Below are positions 2,848 through 48,238 of a stretch of DNA of 64,000 bases, piece after piece; position 1 is the stretch's first letter; every line of letters starts with the position of its first letter. Made by a program: the position numbers and the translations under genes. Source of the stretch: Deltaproteobacteria bacterium (GTDB taxonomy: Bacteria; Desulfobacterota; Syntrophia; Syntrophales; UBA8958). The DNA is taken from contig JAKQIZ010000078.1 of the NCBI GenBank assembly GCA_029561465.1, positions 6,638 to 70,637 on the forward strand. The letters are read 5' to 3'. The notes under the pieces were generated by a model. That model saw nothing but the letters and a program-made list of their open reading frames with translations. It was not told the DNA's origin and searched no databases.

Positions 2848-2872
2848 TGTGGGACGGAAGGTTGTAACTCAT

Positions 2873-2908
2873 GGGGACCGAATAGACCGGCCCCGGAAGG
2901 TTTTTTTT
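2873..2908 (+). terminator. possible intrinsic terminator after the GT9 gene
   Basis: Imperfect GC stem (GGGGACC ... GGCCCC), then a 6-nt spacer and a T8 run at 2901..2908. The spacer between stem and T-run is atypical. Confidence 0.35.
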
Positions 2909-3007
2909 AGTAACCCCCATGCCCGTGTCGGGCACAACGAAAGACGAAAATATCCGGCCACTTGTGGATATTTTCACATAAATATACGGAAAAGGAGGAA
3001 AATTCTT

Positions 3008-3178
3008 ATGGCTATAGGTAAGGAACTGCTCGAGATTCTCGCCTGTCCCAAATGCAAGGGCGAGATCTCCCTCACGGAAGCTGGAGACGGTCTGATCTGT
3101 CAAACCTGCCGGCTTCTTTACGAAATCAGGGACGATATCCCCATCATGCTCATCGAAGAGGCAAAACCGCTTCCCTGA
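3008..3178 (+). CDS. Trm112/UPF0434-family small zinc-ribbon protein
   Basis: 56 aa, MAIGKELLEILACPKCKGEI...CQTCRLLYEIRDDIPIML. AAGGAGG Shine-Dalgarno about 9 nt upstream of the ATG. The longer ORF start at 2849 has no homology support. Confidence 0.8.
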   Translation: MAIGKELLEILACPKCKGEISLTEAGDGLICQTCRLLYEIRDDIPIMLIEEAKPLP

Positions 3179-3224
3179 TCGCCGCCTGTACCCCATACAT
3201 AAGGTGAGACAATCACACTCATGT

Positions 3225-42842: not shown

Positions 42843-44144
42843 CTACATCCCTTCCGTCGCCGCGTATTTCAGTAGTTGATCTTTCTCCGCCAGCACCTTC
42901 TCCACCCCCCGGGCGATTTCCTCCATATCGGCAAAGGTCTGGGGCGGCCGGACGATTTCCGTGGAGATCACCATCTTTTCCAGCTCCTCCGCCTGGGGAC
43001 AGATCCCCCGCTCATAGCTCACCTCCCCCCGGTAAAAGGGGCAGGAAAACGGGCAGCCCTTGTCGCCGTAGCCGATCCGCCGCTGGTAGAGGGGCTGGAG
43101 ATAGAGGGGTTTCATATAGCTCACATAAAAGTCCAGGCCTTCGGCGTTCAGGGCCTTGACGAACAGGGGCGCATCGATGGGGATGACCTCCCGGTCTATC
43201 TTCAGGGCATAGCGGTAATAAACATGGGTGGAATCGGGCCGCGCTCCGGGCAACCCCAGGCCGGGGATGCCCCGCAGCCTTTCGTTGAGGTAGGATACCA
43301 GCTCCCGCCGCCTTTGGGTGAGGTCGTCCAGTTTCCGCAATTGTTCCCTGGCGATCGCCGCCTCGATCTCCGTCATGCGGTAATTGCCGCCGATCATGTT
43401 GACCAGGCTCCCCACGGCCATGCCCGCCGCAATCACCGCCTCGCCGTGGTTGCGGATCAGACGGAGCCGCTGGGCCAGATCGTCATCGTCCGTCACGGCG
43501 ATTCCCCCTTCGCCGCATTGAATGACCTTGTTGCAGTTGAGACTGTAAACGCCGATAGCTCCGATCGTCCCGGAGAGCTTGCCGTTGTACAACGCCCCGG
43601 GCGACTGGGCGGCGTCTTCGATGACCCGCAGGCCGTGCTTTTTGGCCAGATCCATGATGGGACCCATCGCCGCCGGGTGGCCGAAGATATGGGTGACGAA
43701 GATCGCCCGGCTCCGGGCGGTGATCCTCTCCTCCAACCCGGCGGGATCGAGATTGTAATGGTCCAATTCCACGTCGGCAAAAACGGGAATGCCGTTGAAG
43801 GCCAGAATCGCCGTCGCCGTGGCGCTCATGGTGAAAGGCGTGATCAACACCTCGTCTCCCGGCCCCACCGCGCAGGCGCCGACAGCGGCAAACAGGGCCG
43901 ACGTGGCGGAGTTGAAGCTCACGGCATACCGGACGCCGAACTTCTCCGCCCACTCTCCTTCCAGGGCCTTTACCTGCTCACCCCCCAGGAAGTATTGATT
44001 GTTCGTCCCCTCGAACTCGGAAAGGATCGCCCTTTCCAAGACGGCCAGGACCGCCTTCTTTTCCTCTTCCCCCGTCGTGGCATGGACGGGATAGCCTTTC
44101 GTCCGCAGCGGTTTACCCCCCAGCAGGGCTAATTGTGCGTGCAC
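42843..44144 (-). CDS. DegT-family aminotransferase, long (~430-aa) subtype
   Basis: LALLGGKP start, VIEDAAQSPGA, NCNKVIQCGEGG (Lys). GTG start at 44144. Confidence 0.85.
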   Translation of the reverse strand: MHAQLALLGGKPLRTKGYPVHATTGEEEKKAVLAVLERAILSEFEGTNNQYFLGGEQVKALEGEWAEKFGVRYAVSFNSATSALFAAVGACAVGPGDEVLITPFTMSATATAILAFNGIPVFADVELDHYNLDPAGLEERITARSRAIFVTHIFGHPAAMGPIMDLAKKHGLRVIEDAAQSPGALYNGKLSGTIGAIGVYSLNCNKVIQCGEGGIAVTDDDDLAQRLRLIRNHGEAVIAAGMAVGSLVNMIGGNYRMTEIEAAIAREQLRKLDDLTQRRRELVSYLNERLRGIPGLGLPGARPDSTHVYYRYALKIDREVIPIDAPLFVKALNAEGLDFYVSYMKPLYLQPLYQRRIGYGDKGCPFSCPFYRGEVSYERGICPQAEELEKMVISTEIVRPPQTFADMEEIARGVEKVLAEKDQLLKYAATEGM

Positions 44145-45127
44145 TTCCCCGGACCTCCCTGTCTTTCTATTTCTTCGATTACCCTTTGAATATCCAGATA
44201 CCTTTGGGGAGATACGACCGGGATGAGTTCGGGCGCGCCGGCCAGACGCACCAGCTGCGCCACGGCTCCGCCCAGGGCATAACCGATGGTGCTCCTGATC
44301 CCCCGCCGGACCCGCCGCAGCTCCCTGGCCCCCGTCTCCGCCCGGTTTTCCCCCGCTTCCCAGACGACGATCTTCAGTCCCTCGTCCAATATCTGTATTC
44401 TCCCCTCCGTACAGACGAAATCCATCTCGAAGAGACGGAATTTGTCAAAATCGCAGCTCTGAATGAGGCAAGGGATATCCCCCGGAAACACCAGATAGAC
44501 ATCGTAGGAATATTCCCTGGCAGCGGGGGAGTAACGCCGGTCGAGGACGGTTATCCGCTCCGGCGCCCCCAGGGTATGAATGAGGTAGCCCAGCAGATGG
44601 GTCCCCATATTCCGGAGTCCCTTGCCGATATAGCAGTTCACCCGCTGGATGGCCCCGTATTCACCCCGCTGCAGGAGGGATCGGACCTGGAGGTGGGACT
44701 TGTCGTACTCCCGATAGAGGTTGATCGTGATCTTCGCGTCGTCCTGTTCCGTCCAGCGGGCGACCGCCTCGATCTCCGCCGTTCCCCGGGTAAAGGGTTT
44801 TTCGCAGAAGATCACGGGAACGGATTTCCTGGCCGCCTGGAGAATCTCCAAATGGGTTTCCGGGTGGGTGCAGACGCTCAGGATGTCCAGGGGGTTTTCC
44901 GCCAGCATTTGCCGGTAGTCGGAATATAATTTCGCCACGCCCCACTGCGCGCCGAACCGCCGCCGCCGCTCCGCGTCGATATCGGCCCCGCAAACCATCT
45001 CCACCGCCGGATGGCGGGCGTAGGACCCGGCATGGGTCAGGCACGGATAAAAGACCTTCGCCCGGGCGTCCTCCTCGTAGAGGGAGGCGATGCGGCCCAG
45101 GCCGACAATCCCCGCCTTGATCTTCAT
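44129..45127 (-). CDS. Gfo/Idh/MocA-family NAD(P) oxidoreductase
   Basis: MKIKAGIVGLGRIA Rossmann motif and FCEKP. 332 aa. Confidence 0.85.
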   Translation of the reverse strand: MKIKAGIVGLGRIASLYEEDARAKVFYPCLTHAGSYARHPAVEMVCGADIDAERRRRFGAQWGVAKLYSDYRQMLAENPLDILSVCTHPETHLEILQAARKSVPVIFCEKPFTRGTAEIEAVARWTEQDDAKITINLYREYDKSHLQVRSLLQRGEYGAIQRVNCYIGKGLRNMGTHLLGYLIHTLGAPERITVLDRRYSPAAREYSYDVYLVFPGDIPCLIQSCDFDKFRLFEMDFVCTEGRIQILDEGLKIVVWEAGENRAETGARELRRVRRGIRSTIGYALGGAVAQLVRLAGAPELIPVVSPQRYLDIQRVIEEIERQGGPGKCTHN

Positions 45128-45398
45128 TTTTCTTCTCTTAGGCTTTTTGAAAACATTATCGATGATTGTGAATTATGTAAGCTTATCCATTCAATAATAA
45201 CGACATCGTAAAAGGTCAAAAAATGTTCCATTTGGGACGGCATCGTAAAAAGATCCGCAGGCGAGGCGCGCGAATCCTGAGGAATGAGGCGTACTTGTGC
45301 GTACGTCGCAGTGACGAGGGATGAAGCGCAACGAAGCATCCGGACTTTTTACGATGCCGTCAATAATACTAAAATGCTTTTTACATTTAGCAACTAAA
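45128..45398 (-). promoter_or_regulatory. AT-rich 271-nt intergenic region splitting the array; probable terminator/promoter/operator zone
   Basis: Largest non-coding gap in the window and visibly AT-rich. Contains three copies of a ~17-nt motif (CG[A/G]CATCGTAAAA[G/A]) at 45201..45217, 45238..45255 and, inverted, 45342..45359. Confidence 0.55.
45236..45361. repeat. long-range inverted repeat (21 bp with one bulge) enclosing an ~83-nt GC-rich core
   Basis: GACGGCATCGTAAAAAG(A)TCCG at 45236..45257 is the reverse complement of CGGACTTTTTACGATGCCGTC at 45341..45361. Confidence 0.85.
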
Positions 45399-47420
45399 TC
45401 AAATGAAACGTCGAACCATTTTATCTTCTCTTCCTTTTTCTATCTCCAGATTAAAGAAGGCCTCGACGACCTCGATGGGGATCTTCCAGAAATCGATGAG
45501 GCGGATGTCGAGATGGCTCCCCGTGAACCGCCGCTGCCGCCATTCTTCGTAGGAGATGCCCGCCGGCGTGTTCGGATAGGGATTGTAGAGGCTTACGGTA
45601 TAGCCGTCGGCACGGAGGGCTTTTGTGTTCGCGAACATCTCCTCGTACTGGGCGCGATTGAACCATTTACCCCCCAGCATGAGGTAGATGACGCAGTTGA
45701 TCCCCACCTCCTGAATGACCTTGATCCATTCCGCCGCCCCGGCGAGGCTCACCCGCTTGGTCTTGACCTGGTGCCTTTCGCTGAGGGCGTTTTCCAAGCC
45801 CAGTTTGAGATGGGTGCATCCCGCGGCCTTCATCGACCGCAGGAGCTCCACATCCAGGGTATCGTAGCGGCTCTCCACCCGCCAGGTGATGCCGGGGAAT
45901 TTTTCCGTAACCTCCCGGCAGAACTCCAGGGCCATGGCTTTGTCGGCGGTGAAGTTGGCGTCGATGATATAGAAGTTACGGATGCCATAGTTCTCGTACC
46001 GAATCCGGATGTCTTCCATAACCGCCGCCCGGGGGCGGCAGCGGATTTTACCTTTGTTGATCTCCGCCACCCGGCAGAAATCGCAGGTCCCGGCGCATCC
46101 CCGGCGCCAGAGGATCGTATCCAGGGAGGGGGGAGAGATTTCCGTAGCCATCGTCTCAAACCGGAAGGGCGGCAGACTTTTCAACCCGTGCTCGGAGAGG
46201 AGCCCGCCGTTGATCCGGCCCCGTTGATGGTTTTCCAGGATGGCCGGCAGGAGGCTTTCCACCTCGCCATGAACGATCAGGTCGAAATCCTCGGAGGCCA
46301 ACCCCACCTCGGGGCCGACGGCGACGATATAGGCCCGGGGATTCACTTTCCGGACGATCTTGGCGATTTTCTGGGAGGAATCCCAATTCCCGCTGTCAAA
46401 AGAGGGGTTCAGGATATCCCCGCAGGTAACGAACACCGTATCTGAGCCATGGGCGCGGAAATATTCCTCGAACGCCGGGAAGGCCTCGCTTCCGGCCAGG
46501 TGGTCATAGAATTCGACGGAATTGAAGACCATCTGGTAGCGGGTCACATAGTTTTCATGGGGTTCGGAATCGCAGTGGTAGGTCCGGTTGGGGATGTGCA
46601 GGGAATCCAGACGGGAGGAGATGAAGGCCGCCCCCATGTTGAGGCGGTTGTTATGGCTCCCCAGAAGCTTGTAGAACGGGGGTATCACCAGGAGGACATC
46701 CCGCCGGCCCCCTTGGGCAACAAAACTCCTCCTGGCAATGGGGGCGGCGACGCCGTCCAGTTCCTCCTCGATCATCCGCGTGATCTTTTCCGGAAAGATC
46801 ATGTTGTTTTCATAGGTGATCCGGATCGCGCTGATATCGGCGTTGACGGCGGGGACGATATCGTACTCGTAGGAACGTCCCACATAAACCATGTCCCGGG
46901 TATCCGCGGAAAGGATTTCGCCCAGTTGCCGAAGGATATCGTTTTTGTCCATACCCAGGTCGCAGGAAAAGAGACAGCGGTCGAAACAATCGCCCACGGC
47001 GAGCTTGTGGGAGAGGAATTCCTTCTGATAGGCCCAGAGATTGGAAACCACCACGAGGGTGTATTTCTTCTTCAGCGCCGCGAGCAGTTCCATGGCCCCG
47101 GGAACCCAGCGTATCTCCCGGGCGTCGTTGTCCATGAGGGCACGGAACTTCTGGATGATTTTCTCTTTCAAAGGCGACCGGGGATTCTTCAGGCTCAGCA
47201 GCATGGACGACGTCTGCGACGGGGTGACATTTTCAAAGAATCTTTCCAGAAAGCGGGCCGGCTCCGTCTCGGCAATCAACAGGCACCGTTTCTGCTGTTC
47301 CGGGGAGATCTCCTCGCCCGTAATATCCTGGTAAAATATGGAGATAGCCGAATCCTCCGTACCGAAGATCAGGGTTTCCCACAAGTCAAAAACTACAATT
47401 TTCTTTTTTTTATCAACCAT
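45399..47420 (-). CDS. fusion protein: degenerate HAD-like domain (N-terminal ~215 aa) plus B12-binding radical SAM domain
   Basis: VVFDLWETLIF (HAD motif I with the second Asp replaced), VVSNLW, YVGRSYEYD (degenerate motif IV). This is followed by a Rossmann-like region and CAGTCDFC (CX3CX2C). Confidence 0.8.
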   Translation of the reverse strand: MVDKKKKIVVFDLWETLIFGTEDSAISIFYQDITGEEISPEQQKRCLLIAETEPARFLERFFENVTPSQTSSMLLSLKNPRSPLKEKIIQKFRALMDNDAREIRWVPGAMELLAALKKKYTLVVVSNLWAYQKEFLSHKLAVGDCFDRCLFSCDLGMDKNDILRQLGEILSADTRDMVYVGRSYEYDIVPAVNADISAIRITYENNMIFPEKITRMIEEELDGVAAPIARRSFVAQGGRRDVLLVIPPFYKLLGSHNNRLNMGAAFISSRLDSLHIPNRTYHCDSEPHENYVTRYQMVFNSVEFYDHLAGSEAFPAFEEYFRAHGSDTVFVTCGDILNPSFDSGNWDSSQKIAKIVRKVNPRAYIVAVGPEVGLASEDFDLIVHGEVESLLPAILENHQRGRINGGLLSEHGLKSLPPFRFETMATEISPPSLDTILWRRGCAGTCDFCRVAEINKGKIRCRPRAAVMEDIRIRYENYGIRNFYIIDANFTADKAMALEFCREVTEKFPGITWRVESRYDTLDVELLRSMKAAGCTHLKLGLENALSERHQVKTKRVSLAGAAEWIKVIQEVGINCVIYLMLGGKWFNRAQYEEMFANTKALRADGYTVSLYNPYPNTPAGISYEEWRQRRFTGSHLDIRLIDFWKIPIEVVEAFFNLEIEKGREDKMVRRFI

Positions 47421-47440
47421 TTATCAACCTCTTCACCGGC

Positions 47441-48238
47441 TTATTGCCGGCCACTGAATCTGTTCCTCAGGAACTCCTGGTTTTGCCGCTCCGCGTCGGT
47501 CATGGTCTTTTCGTCCGTTCCCAGCATGGAAACGATCATCCGCTTGTATTCCACCAGCATCTTCAGCTCCAGGGGATCGGCGGAAAGGATATGATCCGTG
47601 CCGAAATAGGTCTTCGAAAGGGTAATGTGCTTCTCGATGACCGCCGCCCCCCGGGCCACCGCCACCAGGGGCGCCACGATGCCCAAGGTATGATCGGAGT
47701 AACCAACCTGGCACCGGTAACGCTCCCGGAGGTAGTCCATGGTCCGCATGTTGACCCGTTCATCCGGGAGGGGATATTCCGATACACAATGGAGGAGATA
47801 GAGGTCCACTTTTTTTAGCATTGCCACCGCCGCGTCGATCTCCGCCACGGAGGACATCCCGGTGGACAGGAAGACCTTGTCCGCCCGGTCGTTGACCAGT
47901 TTGAGGAGATCATGATCGGTGATATGAAAGGAGGCGATCTTCATGTCCCGCACCCCCAAAGAAAAGAGGTCCGCCGCCTTGGCGGCGTCCCAGGGGGTGC
48001 AGAGAAAGGCGATGCCCCGCTGGCGGGCTATCCCGTAGAGATAGCGCAACTGGTCCATGTCGAGCTGCACCTTCCGGAACCATTCCTTTTCCGGATCGCT
48101 GTCGGCACAGGCCTCGGCGTCATAGTACTGGAACTTCACATAGTCGGCTCCCGCCTCCCGGGAGACATCGATCATCTTCCGGGCGAGATCCATGTCCCCC
48201 AGGTGATTTTCCCCCGCTTCCGCAATGATGATGCACAT
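47441..48238 (-). CDS. NeuB/SpsE-family PEP-dependent sugar synthase homologue lacking the C-terminal SAF domain
   Basis: MCIIIAEAGENHLGDMDLARKMIDVSREAGADYVKFQ and GYSDHTLG motifs. Only 265 aa from ATG 48238. Confidence 0.8.
   Translation of the reverse strand: MCIIIAEAGENHLGDMDLARKMIDVSREAGADYVKFQYYDAEACADSDPEKEWFRKVQLDMDQLRYLYGIARQRGIAFLCTPWDAAKAADLFSLGVRDMKIASFHITDHDLLKLVNDRADKVFLSTGMSSVAEIDAAVAMLKKVDLYLLHCVSEYPLPDERVNMRTMDYLRERYRCQVGYSDHTLGIVAPLVAVARGAAVIEKHITLSKTYFGTDHILSADPLELKMLVEYKRMIVSMLGTDEKTMTDAERQNQEFLRNRFSGRQ

Follow-up and report, generated by a model that had tools for sequence, protein, structure and literature searches.

The 271-nt non-coding gap at 45128–45398 of the 64,000-nucleotide stretch of deltaproteobacterial DNA analyzed here (the window) very probably reflects the recent insertion of a non-autonomous MITE into a long nonulosonic-acid/glycan operon. 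The gap is flanked by two minus-strand genes (Table 1) and is surrounded by a long co-directional cluster that includes NeuB, DegT, cytidylyltransferase, methyltransferase, and more radical-SAM genes. The inserted element has no coding capacity, containing only spurious overlapping ORFs, and it is identified as a MITE by its size, its terminal repeats, its target-site duplication, its dispersed copies, and its insertion polymorphism. It is present once in the window; elsewhere in the window, the stretch 2848–3224 (377 nt) holds short ORFs only.

Anatomy of the element

What distinguishes this gap from the rest of the window? The window has a GC content of 58%, and GC content measured over 150 nt falls below 40% at this gap alone. 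The core enclosed by the inverted repeat reaches 60% GC, compared with 23–27% for the sequence on either side of the element. Three copies of the motif CGRCATCGTAAAAR are present, at 45201 and 45238 on the plus strand and at 45346 on the minus strand, and none elsewhere in the 64 kb with up to one mismatch; 0.08 occurrences are expected by chance, and three were reached in none of 100 shuffles. The segments 45236–45252 and 45345–45361 form an inverted repeat that is complementary at 17 of 17 positions, with 92 nt between the arms, and that reaches ~21 bp with a one-base bulge. These results agree with the first-pass annotation of this DNA, which had described the gap as the only AT-rich segment of the window, with a triple 17-nt motif, a 21-bp inverted repeat around a GC-rich core, and a repeat of TCAATAATA. 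The last is indeed present at 45191 and 45360, because the AATAAT target is duplicated. The annotation had also listed a MITE/REP-like insertion among its explanations, with a 126-nt inverted repeat as the element. The insertion is borne out by the duplication, the empty site, the depth excess, and the 44 copies described below, and the 126-nt repeat is real, in that the inner left site pairs with the right end; however, it is not the mobile unit, which measures 163 bp and includes the outer motif too.

Table 1. Features of the gap and of its two flanking genes (positions in the window).
Feature	Position	Strand	Basis or remark
GFO/IDH/MocA oxidoreductase, 332 aa	44129..45127	minus	downstream of gap
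AT-rich spacer	45128..45192	.	27% GC including left duplication; pre-dates insertion
Left target-site duplication AATAAT	45193..45198	.	same hexamer at 45362-45367
MITE, 163 bp, 52% GC	45199..45361	+	family profile nhmmer match, E = 1.3e-42
Site 1, outer left terminal repeat AACGACATCGTAAAAGGTC	45199..45217	+	family alignments
AT-rich spacer between sites 1 and 2	45218..45235	+	family alignment
Site 2, inner left repeat GACGGCATCGTAAAAAGAT, direct relative to site 1	45236..45254	+	
GC-rich rod-like core, imperfect palindrome	45255..45342	+	RNAalifold consensus
Site 3, right terminal inverted repeat, minus strand reads GACGGCATCGTAAAAAGTC	45343..45361	-	
Right target-site duplication AATAAT	45362..45367	.	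matches left copy
AT-rich spacer	45368..45398	.	23% GC; from element to radical SAM/HAD stop codon
HAD/radical-SAM fusion, 673 aa	45399..47420	minus	upstream of gap

The terminal inverted repeats are sites 1 and 3; in the family, either end has the consensus GAYGNNNTCGTAAAAAG. The duplication adjoins site 1, not site 2, which forms the left arm of the perfect 17-bp inverted repeat. Site 1 of the window is a degenerate version of the family consensus GATGAACTCGTAAAAAGTC, and the outer left repeat of this copy is 83% complementary over 23 nt. Taking the flanking T and A as part of the element (TG...CA termini) would shift the bounds to 45198–45362 and shorten the duplication to 4 bp. Within the core, GGCGTAC (45288–45294) pairs with GTACGTC (45301–45307) to form an apical hairpin.

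The AT-rich spacer on the left of the element carries the 5' untranslated and ribosome-binding region of the oxidoreductase gene, and the spacer on the right holds a weak, partial fourth motif, CTTTTTAC, at 45377–45384. The idea that the 101-nt spacer is a decayed older copy of the element was considered and rejected, as this partial motif and GATGATTG at 45162 are weak resemblances only.

Evidence for a recent insertion

To compare filled and empty sites, we used contigs that encode the upstream protein or close variants of it. One strain (L114) has an empty site, a 101-nt gap in which the element is absent and a single copy of the target, ATTGTT in gene orientation, is present. Its flanking genes are 97–99% identical to those of the window, with 22 differences over 2022 nt in the upstream radical SAM/HAD gene and 28 over 999 nt in the oxidoreductase gene; the left spacer is nearly unchanged, and the right spacer is kept with few differences. 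The L114 gap thus equals the flanks of the window joined through one target copy, where the window reads ATTATT-element-ATTATT in gene orientation, and the segment missing in L114 is exactly the element plus one copy of the duplication. The 271-nt allele of the window was found in L105 and L110–L112, and the contigs of L113 and L115 break within the element. Since L115 has a filled site and encodes an upstream protein identical to that of the empty-site strain, the presence of the insertion varies within a single species-level population. Gene order is the same in relatives at 86% and 78% protein identity, where the two genes meet in an ATGA overlap (0 nt) and across 26 nt, respectively. These junctions indicate that the 101-nt AT-rich spacer is itself lineage-specific and that the MITE landed in it later.

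The direct repetition of AATAAT on both sides of the element is matched across the family. With the element set as GAYG...CRTC, an exact 6-bp duplication was found in 26 of the 44 full copies and a 7-bp duplication in 5 of 44, compared with 1.3% when left flanks were paired with right flanks of other copies. The targets follow the pattern A(A/T)NN(T/A)T. The length of the duplication is ambiguous: GA...TC ends imply 6–7 bp and TG...CA ends 4–5 bp. The outer bases deviate in two copies (L065 and L032b), which weakly favor 6 bp.

Furthermore, sequencing depth sets the element apart from its surroundings. We mapped assembled contigs from a wastewater, a digester, and an activated-sludge DNA metagenome, together with those of one metatranscriptome (X2), on 43500–47500. 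The word depth of the element (45236–45362; bins covering 45242–45375) and of its flanks was 700 versus 6, 7012 versus 29, and 1921 versus 10 in the three DNA metagenomes, an excess of 100–250x that may include in part the copies of other community members. In the metatranscriptome, the element reached a depth of 5000 and the flanking genes 16–19; the excess in RNA, 300–400x, is of the same order. The two spacers have single-copy depth in the metagenomes (pieces 44872–45229 and pieces starting from 45335/45337), and unitigs break at 45200/45202, 45236/45239, and 45362–45366 into many different flanks. The same pattern of depth and breaks was repeated in X25, X26, and X37, which are RNA or RNA-labelled libraries; X27 barely has the locus.

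Two sets of variants were observed along the way. At 45299, in the apical loop of the element, roughly half the depth summed within each metagenome comes from G>A; this polymorphism belongs to the family and does not reflect variation at the locus. In addition, the contigs of all four mapped metagenomes differ from the window at 44189, 44192, 44193, and 44217 (A>G, A>G, T>A, and A>G), close to where the oxidoreductase gene ends and overlaps the start of the downstream DegT gene; this cluster stems either from a difference between strains or from local variation in the assembly.

A family of related elements in other genomes

Is the element dispersed or unique to this locus, a question posed by the first-pass annotation? 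In species-representative genomes, the exact 17-mer GACGGCATCGTAAAAAG matched at least 104 loci, at least 32 of which come from one MAG (JBBIWB01); the family, hairpin-forming and large, is dispersed over the genomes of many sulfate-reducing and syntrophic bacteria. Among the matches listed, BLAST and a profile search yielded 44 full-length copies that are 73–92% identical to the window copy. The MAGs that bear them are labelled Desulfobacteraceae, Desulfosarcina, Desulfosalsimonadaceae, Desulfobacterales, Smithella/Smithellaceae, Syntrophus, Syntrophaceae, and "Deltaproteobacteria". An interrupted copy is present in Desulfosarcina widdelii PP31 (NZ_AP021875.1), at about 4.133 Mb. The closest copies among the matches listed, at 90–92% identity, are those of two unclassified Deltaproteobacteria MAGs and of Syntrophus, Smithella, and Smithellaceae MAGs.

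The copies are 148–186 bp long, mostly 150–165 bp, and all 44 have two direct sites on the left, a GC-rich rod, and one inverted site on the right. The order in the family is an outer site GATGAACTCGTAAAAAGTC, a spacer of 8–25 nt, an inner site GACGGCWTYGTAAAAAG, a GC-rich core of ~90 nt with the apical hairpin GGCGTAC-N5-GTACGCC, and the inverted site CTTTTTACGATGCCGTC. The invariance of the right end in the alignment is partly an artefact, as the scan required the exact 17-mer. The long form of the spacer is found in Smithella, Smithellaceae, one Syntrophus MAG, and two unclassified Deltaproteobacteria MAGs.

All copies are intergenic. Where the neighboring genes are co-directional, the element lies opposite to transcription in 15 copies and in the same orientation in 10, giving no orientation bias in 25 co-directional contexts; a further 8 copies lie between divergent genes and 2 between convergent genes. 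The lack of a strand bias argues against a cis-acting function in mRNA as the reason for which the family exists. In 8 of the ~35 copies with callable neighbors, the adjacent gene takes its stop codon from the TCA at the right end, read as TGA on the opposite strand (L009:5157, L029:5792, L058:6342, L041:1696, L096:2741, L050:2706, L049:1623, and L032:5449), which indicates that insertions often occur at the 3' ends of genes and supply or replace the stop.

Real copies are also present on ~5 IMG/VR viral contigs, which are a possible route of horizontal spread; the viral scan used a degenerate terminal-repeat pattern, and its 71 matches are close to a roughly estimated chance expectation. One viral contig (L147:7465–7617) carries a full MITE with the duplication AAGCA/AAGCAT. 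In two related viral contigs with the same flanking genes (L178:887–904 and L121:1611–1628), all that is present at this spot is a solo terminal repeat of 18 nt, TGACGACTTCGTAAAAAG, which looks like a deletion footprint left after loss of the element. At L079:168–230, the right terminal repeat runs directly into site 1 and the spacer in reverse complement (GACGGCATCGTAAAAAGGCCGTCCGAATATTGACTTTTTACGAGTTCATCA), a rearranged mini-version that looks like the product of an internal deletion or of an inversion between repeated sites.

The same terminal repeat, TTGACGGCATCGTAAAAAGTC, also opens at least three further families of short repeats in MAGs of Desulfobacteraceae, Desulfonema, and others; their cores are unrelated, and one of them runs ttcaccacgaag...cacgaagagcacgaag (L006:1397, L018:6299, L031:3873, L076:1307, and L100:2962; also L003:83, L036:669, L038:6, L061:1365, and L086:5740; L062:925). 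A common terminal repeat joined to different cores suggests recognition of ~20 bp by one transposase and a MITE superfamily served by that transposase. The MAGs of L038 and L086 are labelled Anaerolineales and Bacteroidales, and their proteins are 94–98% identical over several kb at the terminal-repeat match; at least one of these bins is probably contaminated or mislabelled.

Structure of the core

The consensus fold predicted by RNAalifold is a rod that extends from site 2 to site 3. In the alignment, 94.4% of the cells form standard pairs, compared with 32–47% when the partners were slid by 1–3 columns. Both sides have changed in 19 of the 35 pairs, compared with 6–10 for slid partners and 8.9 ± 1.7 for shuffled alignments, none of 500 of which reached 19, and the covariation score was 0.231, compared with 0.03–0.06 for slid partners. 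Part of this covariation is expected because one transposase must match both ends. The covariation runs, however, through the core and the apical hairpin, where CGTAC/GTACG becomes CATAC/GTATG and CACGC/GCGTG; covariation of the whole rod exceeds what a passive MITE needs, and the core may have a function beyond that explained by a MITE.

The plus strand folds slightly better than its complement in 29 of 39 copies (Wilcoxon p = 0.001) and in 14 of 18 when counted per genome. Cells with G-U pairs outnumber those with A-C, 80 versus 22, on the strand on which the structure had been predicted. For the window copy, we folded the RNA of the minus strand, as the first-pass annotation had suggested, and obtained −56.4 kcal/mol (z = −4.76) in the mRNA sense, compared with −68.8 kcal/mol (z = −6.65) for the plus strand; the mRNA of the window therefore carries the weaker-folding strand. 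In both orientations, A5 precedes the rod and U5 follows it, a layout like that of a bidirectional terminator and far longer than canonical terminators, and a terminator scan did not call it as an intrinsic terminator. A search of the whole window against Rfam 15 gave no match at gathering thresholds, and permissive E-values on the gap returned chance-level eukaryotic lncRNA or viral models (E > 1).

Effect on the operon

Metatranscriptome contigs link each of the two genes, via its unique spacer, to the adjacent end of the element. The depth of RNA contigs, which record neither strand nor ends and may derive partly from DNA, was 12.5–16 downstream versus 19.3 upstream, 10 versus 12.9, and 5.2 versus 7.3; for DNA contigs, the corresponding values were 6.2 versus 6.7, 28.6 versus 33.8, and 10.3 versus 10.5. 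The similar RNA depth on both sides fits read-through without strong termination. A scan for sigma-70-like promoters found no site on the gene strand in the gap. The transcript probably reads through the element and would carry a long hairpin (about −56 kcal/mol). For the operon, a near-neutral insertion is most likely, and it is possible that the hairpin modestly alters transcript stability or read-through.

Weighing the alternatives

Could the structure belong to the operon itself rather than to a mobile element? It might be a locally evolved cis-regulatory RNA (a terminator, an RNase processing site, or a stabilizer) that divides the operon, with the similarity among copies reflecting a shared RNA family; a long RNA stem-loop was one of the options of the first-pass annotation. 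The very stable mRNA-sense hairpin, the A5-stem-U5 layout reminiscent of a bidirectional intrinsic terminator, the covariation in the rod, and the abundance of the family in metatranscriptome contigs would all suit such an RNA. However, the duplication and the empty site show that the structure originated by insertion, and it is present or absent between strains. Moreover, the copies between co-directional genes point either way relative to transcription without bias, the strand that folds better is not the one transcribed here, Rfam gave no match, RNA depth is alike on both sides of the element, and the RNA excess is of the same order as the DNA excess. We therefore regard a local origin as a regulatory RNA as extremely unlikely. 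The chance that the three motifs form an operator array, in which a transcription factor controls the downstream genes from 45127 to 3225, is close to negligible. This option, also raised earlier, would draw on the clustering of two direct copies and one inverted copy of the 17-nt motif in a gap that is the sole AT-rich one of the operon, but it was not sustained, as all of the sites came with the mobile unit and are absent both from the empty-site strain, which keeps the operon, and from the relatives with the same operon at 86% and 78% protein identity. The three-site arrangement recurs, besides, in 44 unrelated gene contexts in many genomes, and no sigma-70-like promoter was predicted on the gene strand.

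A mobile element of another kind would be a palindrome of the REP/REPIN type, moved as single-stranded DNA by a RAYT (HUH, Y1) transposase. REPINs consist of two short REP palindromes and have no target-site duplication, and insertion of the HUH/IS200-IS605 type likewise produces none. The element resembles REPINs as a high-copy intergenic palindrome with compensatory changes in its rod-like stem and rapid gain and loss between strains; the somewhat better folding of one strand (with its excess of G-U over A-C cells) and the lack of a partner IS among ~190 loci, which are biased towards MITE copies, could also be read in this way. Nevertheless, 6–7-bp duplications occur in 31 of the 44 copies, the empty site has a single target, and the ends are terminal inverted repeats of 17–19 bp, not short self-palindromic REP units; no RAYT gene was noticed among the loci either. 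Movement by a RAYT transposase appears very unlikely.

Mobilization and a putative partner

A DDE-type MITE remains our preferred reading. The MITE very probably entered an AT-rich spacer of ~101 nt that already lay between the two co-transcribed genes, and duplicated the AATAAT target. It would be moved by a DDE-type transposase supplied in trans by an insertion sequence, with transposition by cut-and-paste or copy-in and a preference for targets of the family pattern. The three 17-nt motifs, two direct on the left and one inverted on the right, are most likely transposase-binding sites, given their position at the ends and by analogy with the multi-site ends of insertion sequences. The ends of the IS21 family, Mu, Tn7, and Tn552-type elements have several transposase-binding repeats, in unequal number per end, and the element is like them in having several motif copies that are unevenly divided between its ends. 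IS21/IS3-like elements have TG...CA termini and a 4–5-bp duplication, as the present family may. The ISDol1 group (ISNCY) was first reported from a Desulfococcus and has duplications in the range of 6–7 bp, as may the copies studied here, which lie largely in Desulfobacterales MAGs. By this analogy, a partner of the ISDol1 type is a lead for the MITE family.

We searched for the partner in ~190 loci, using 8-kb pieces centered on MITE copies; this sample is strongly biased towards MITEs, and the negative result is accordingly weak. None of the pairs of terminal repeats 0.2–6 kb apart in the 104 genome and 71 viral loci encloses a transposase-like ORF, an all-versus-all blastp comparison revealed no multi-copy ORFs among the loci, the ORFs beside matches to the terminal repeat alone include no transposase, and neither do the short high-coverage contigs of the MITE-rich MAG.

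Does the core do more than separate the two ends? One tentative and rather unlikely scenario is that the ~90-nt covarying core is a functional module of single-stranded DNA or RNA and that the family is mobilized by a transposase group new to MITEs, perhaps an ISDol1-like one. Such a core might be needed in cis for transposition via a hairpin or single-stranded intermediate. Alternatively, it might be used by the host as a portable bidirectional terminator, stabilizer, or RNase target, which would partition long operons such as the roughly 60-gene glycan cluster. A functional core would explain why it is kept with compensatory changes across Desulfobacterales, Syntrophales, and viral contigs, while the spacer and flanks vary.

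Comparison with known MITEs

Known bacterial MITEs include Correia/NEMIS in Neisseria, ERIC in Enterobacteriaceae (about 127 bp), RUP in S. pneumoniae (107 bp), and Nezha in cyanobacteria (PMC3184786). The element is like them in being small (about 100–250 bp) and non-coding, with terminal inverted repeats and target-site duplications; in its many copies scattered between genes, at sites that are filled in some strains and empty in others; and in its long hairpins when transcribed and the overlap of some copies with gene ends. No sequence similarity to them was detected, and there was no match in Rfam or, by blastn, in a plasmid collection. Unlike these MITEs, the element has asymmetric ends, with two direct sites on the left and one on the right. 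Its core is a covarying GC-rich rod kept across Desulfobacterota orders; the host range is wider and the conservation stronger than in the usual MITE families.

The nearest published analogue in lifestyle is Chunjie of Geobacter uraniireducens Rf4, an A+T-rich MITE of 178–235 bp with 9-bp direct repeats (PMC3184786). It has terminal repeats of about 21 bp, a very stable predicted RNA fold, and some gene overlap (PMC3184786, PMC10969869). Compared by description, both are MITEs in an operon of a "deltaproteobacterial" anaerobe, and neither obviously breaks the operon. They differ in that the present family measures 148–186 bp and has a GC-rich core and 6–7-bp (or 4–5-bp) duplications. In the literature searchable here, we found no paper linking MITEs to Desulfobacter-type bacteria and none that matches the family, which appears to be undescribed and missing from Rfam and the searchable literature.

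Significance

A MITE of this kind is an ordinary explanation of the gap; the breadth of the family and its covarying core are of modest interest. For the operon, it means that the break in the gene array is a recent insertion scar and not a regulatory design, and that no operator, promoter, or operon boundary should be annotated from the element. For the family, it means that a MITE is abundant in the bacteria of anaerobic sludge and sediment, where contigs end at its terminal repeats and metagenome assemblies are broken, and that some of its copies give neighboring genes their stop codons. Furthermore, filled and empty alleles of one operon co-exist in public metagenomes, which provides a natural experiment on the effect of a hairpin in a polycistronic transcript.
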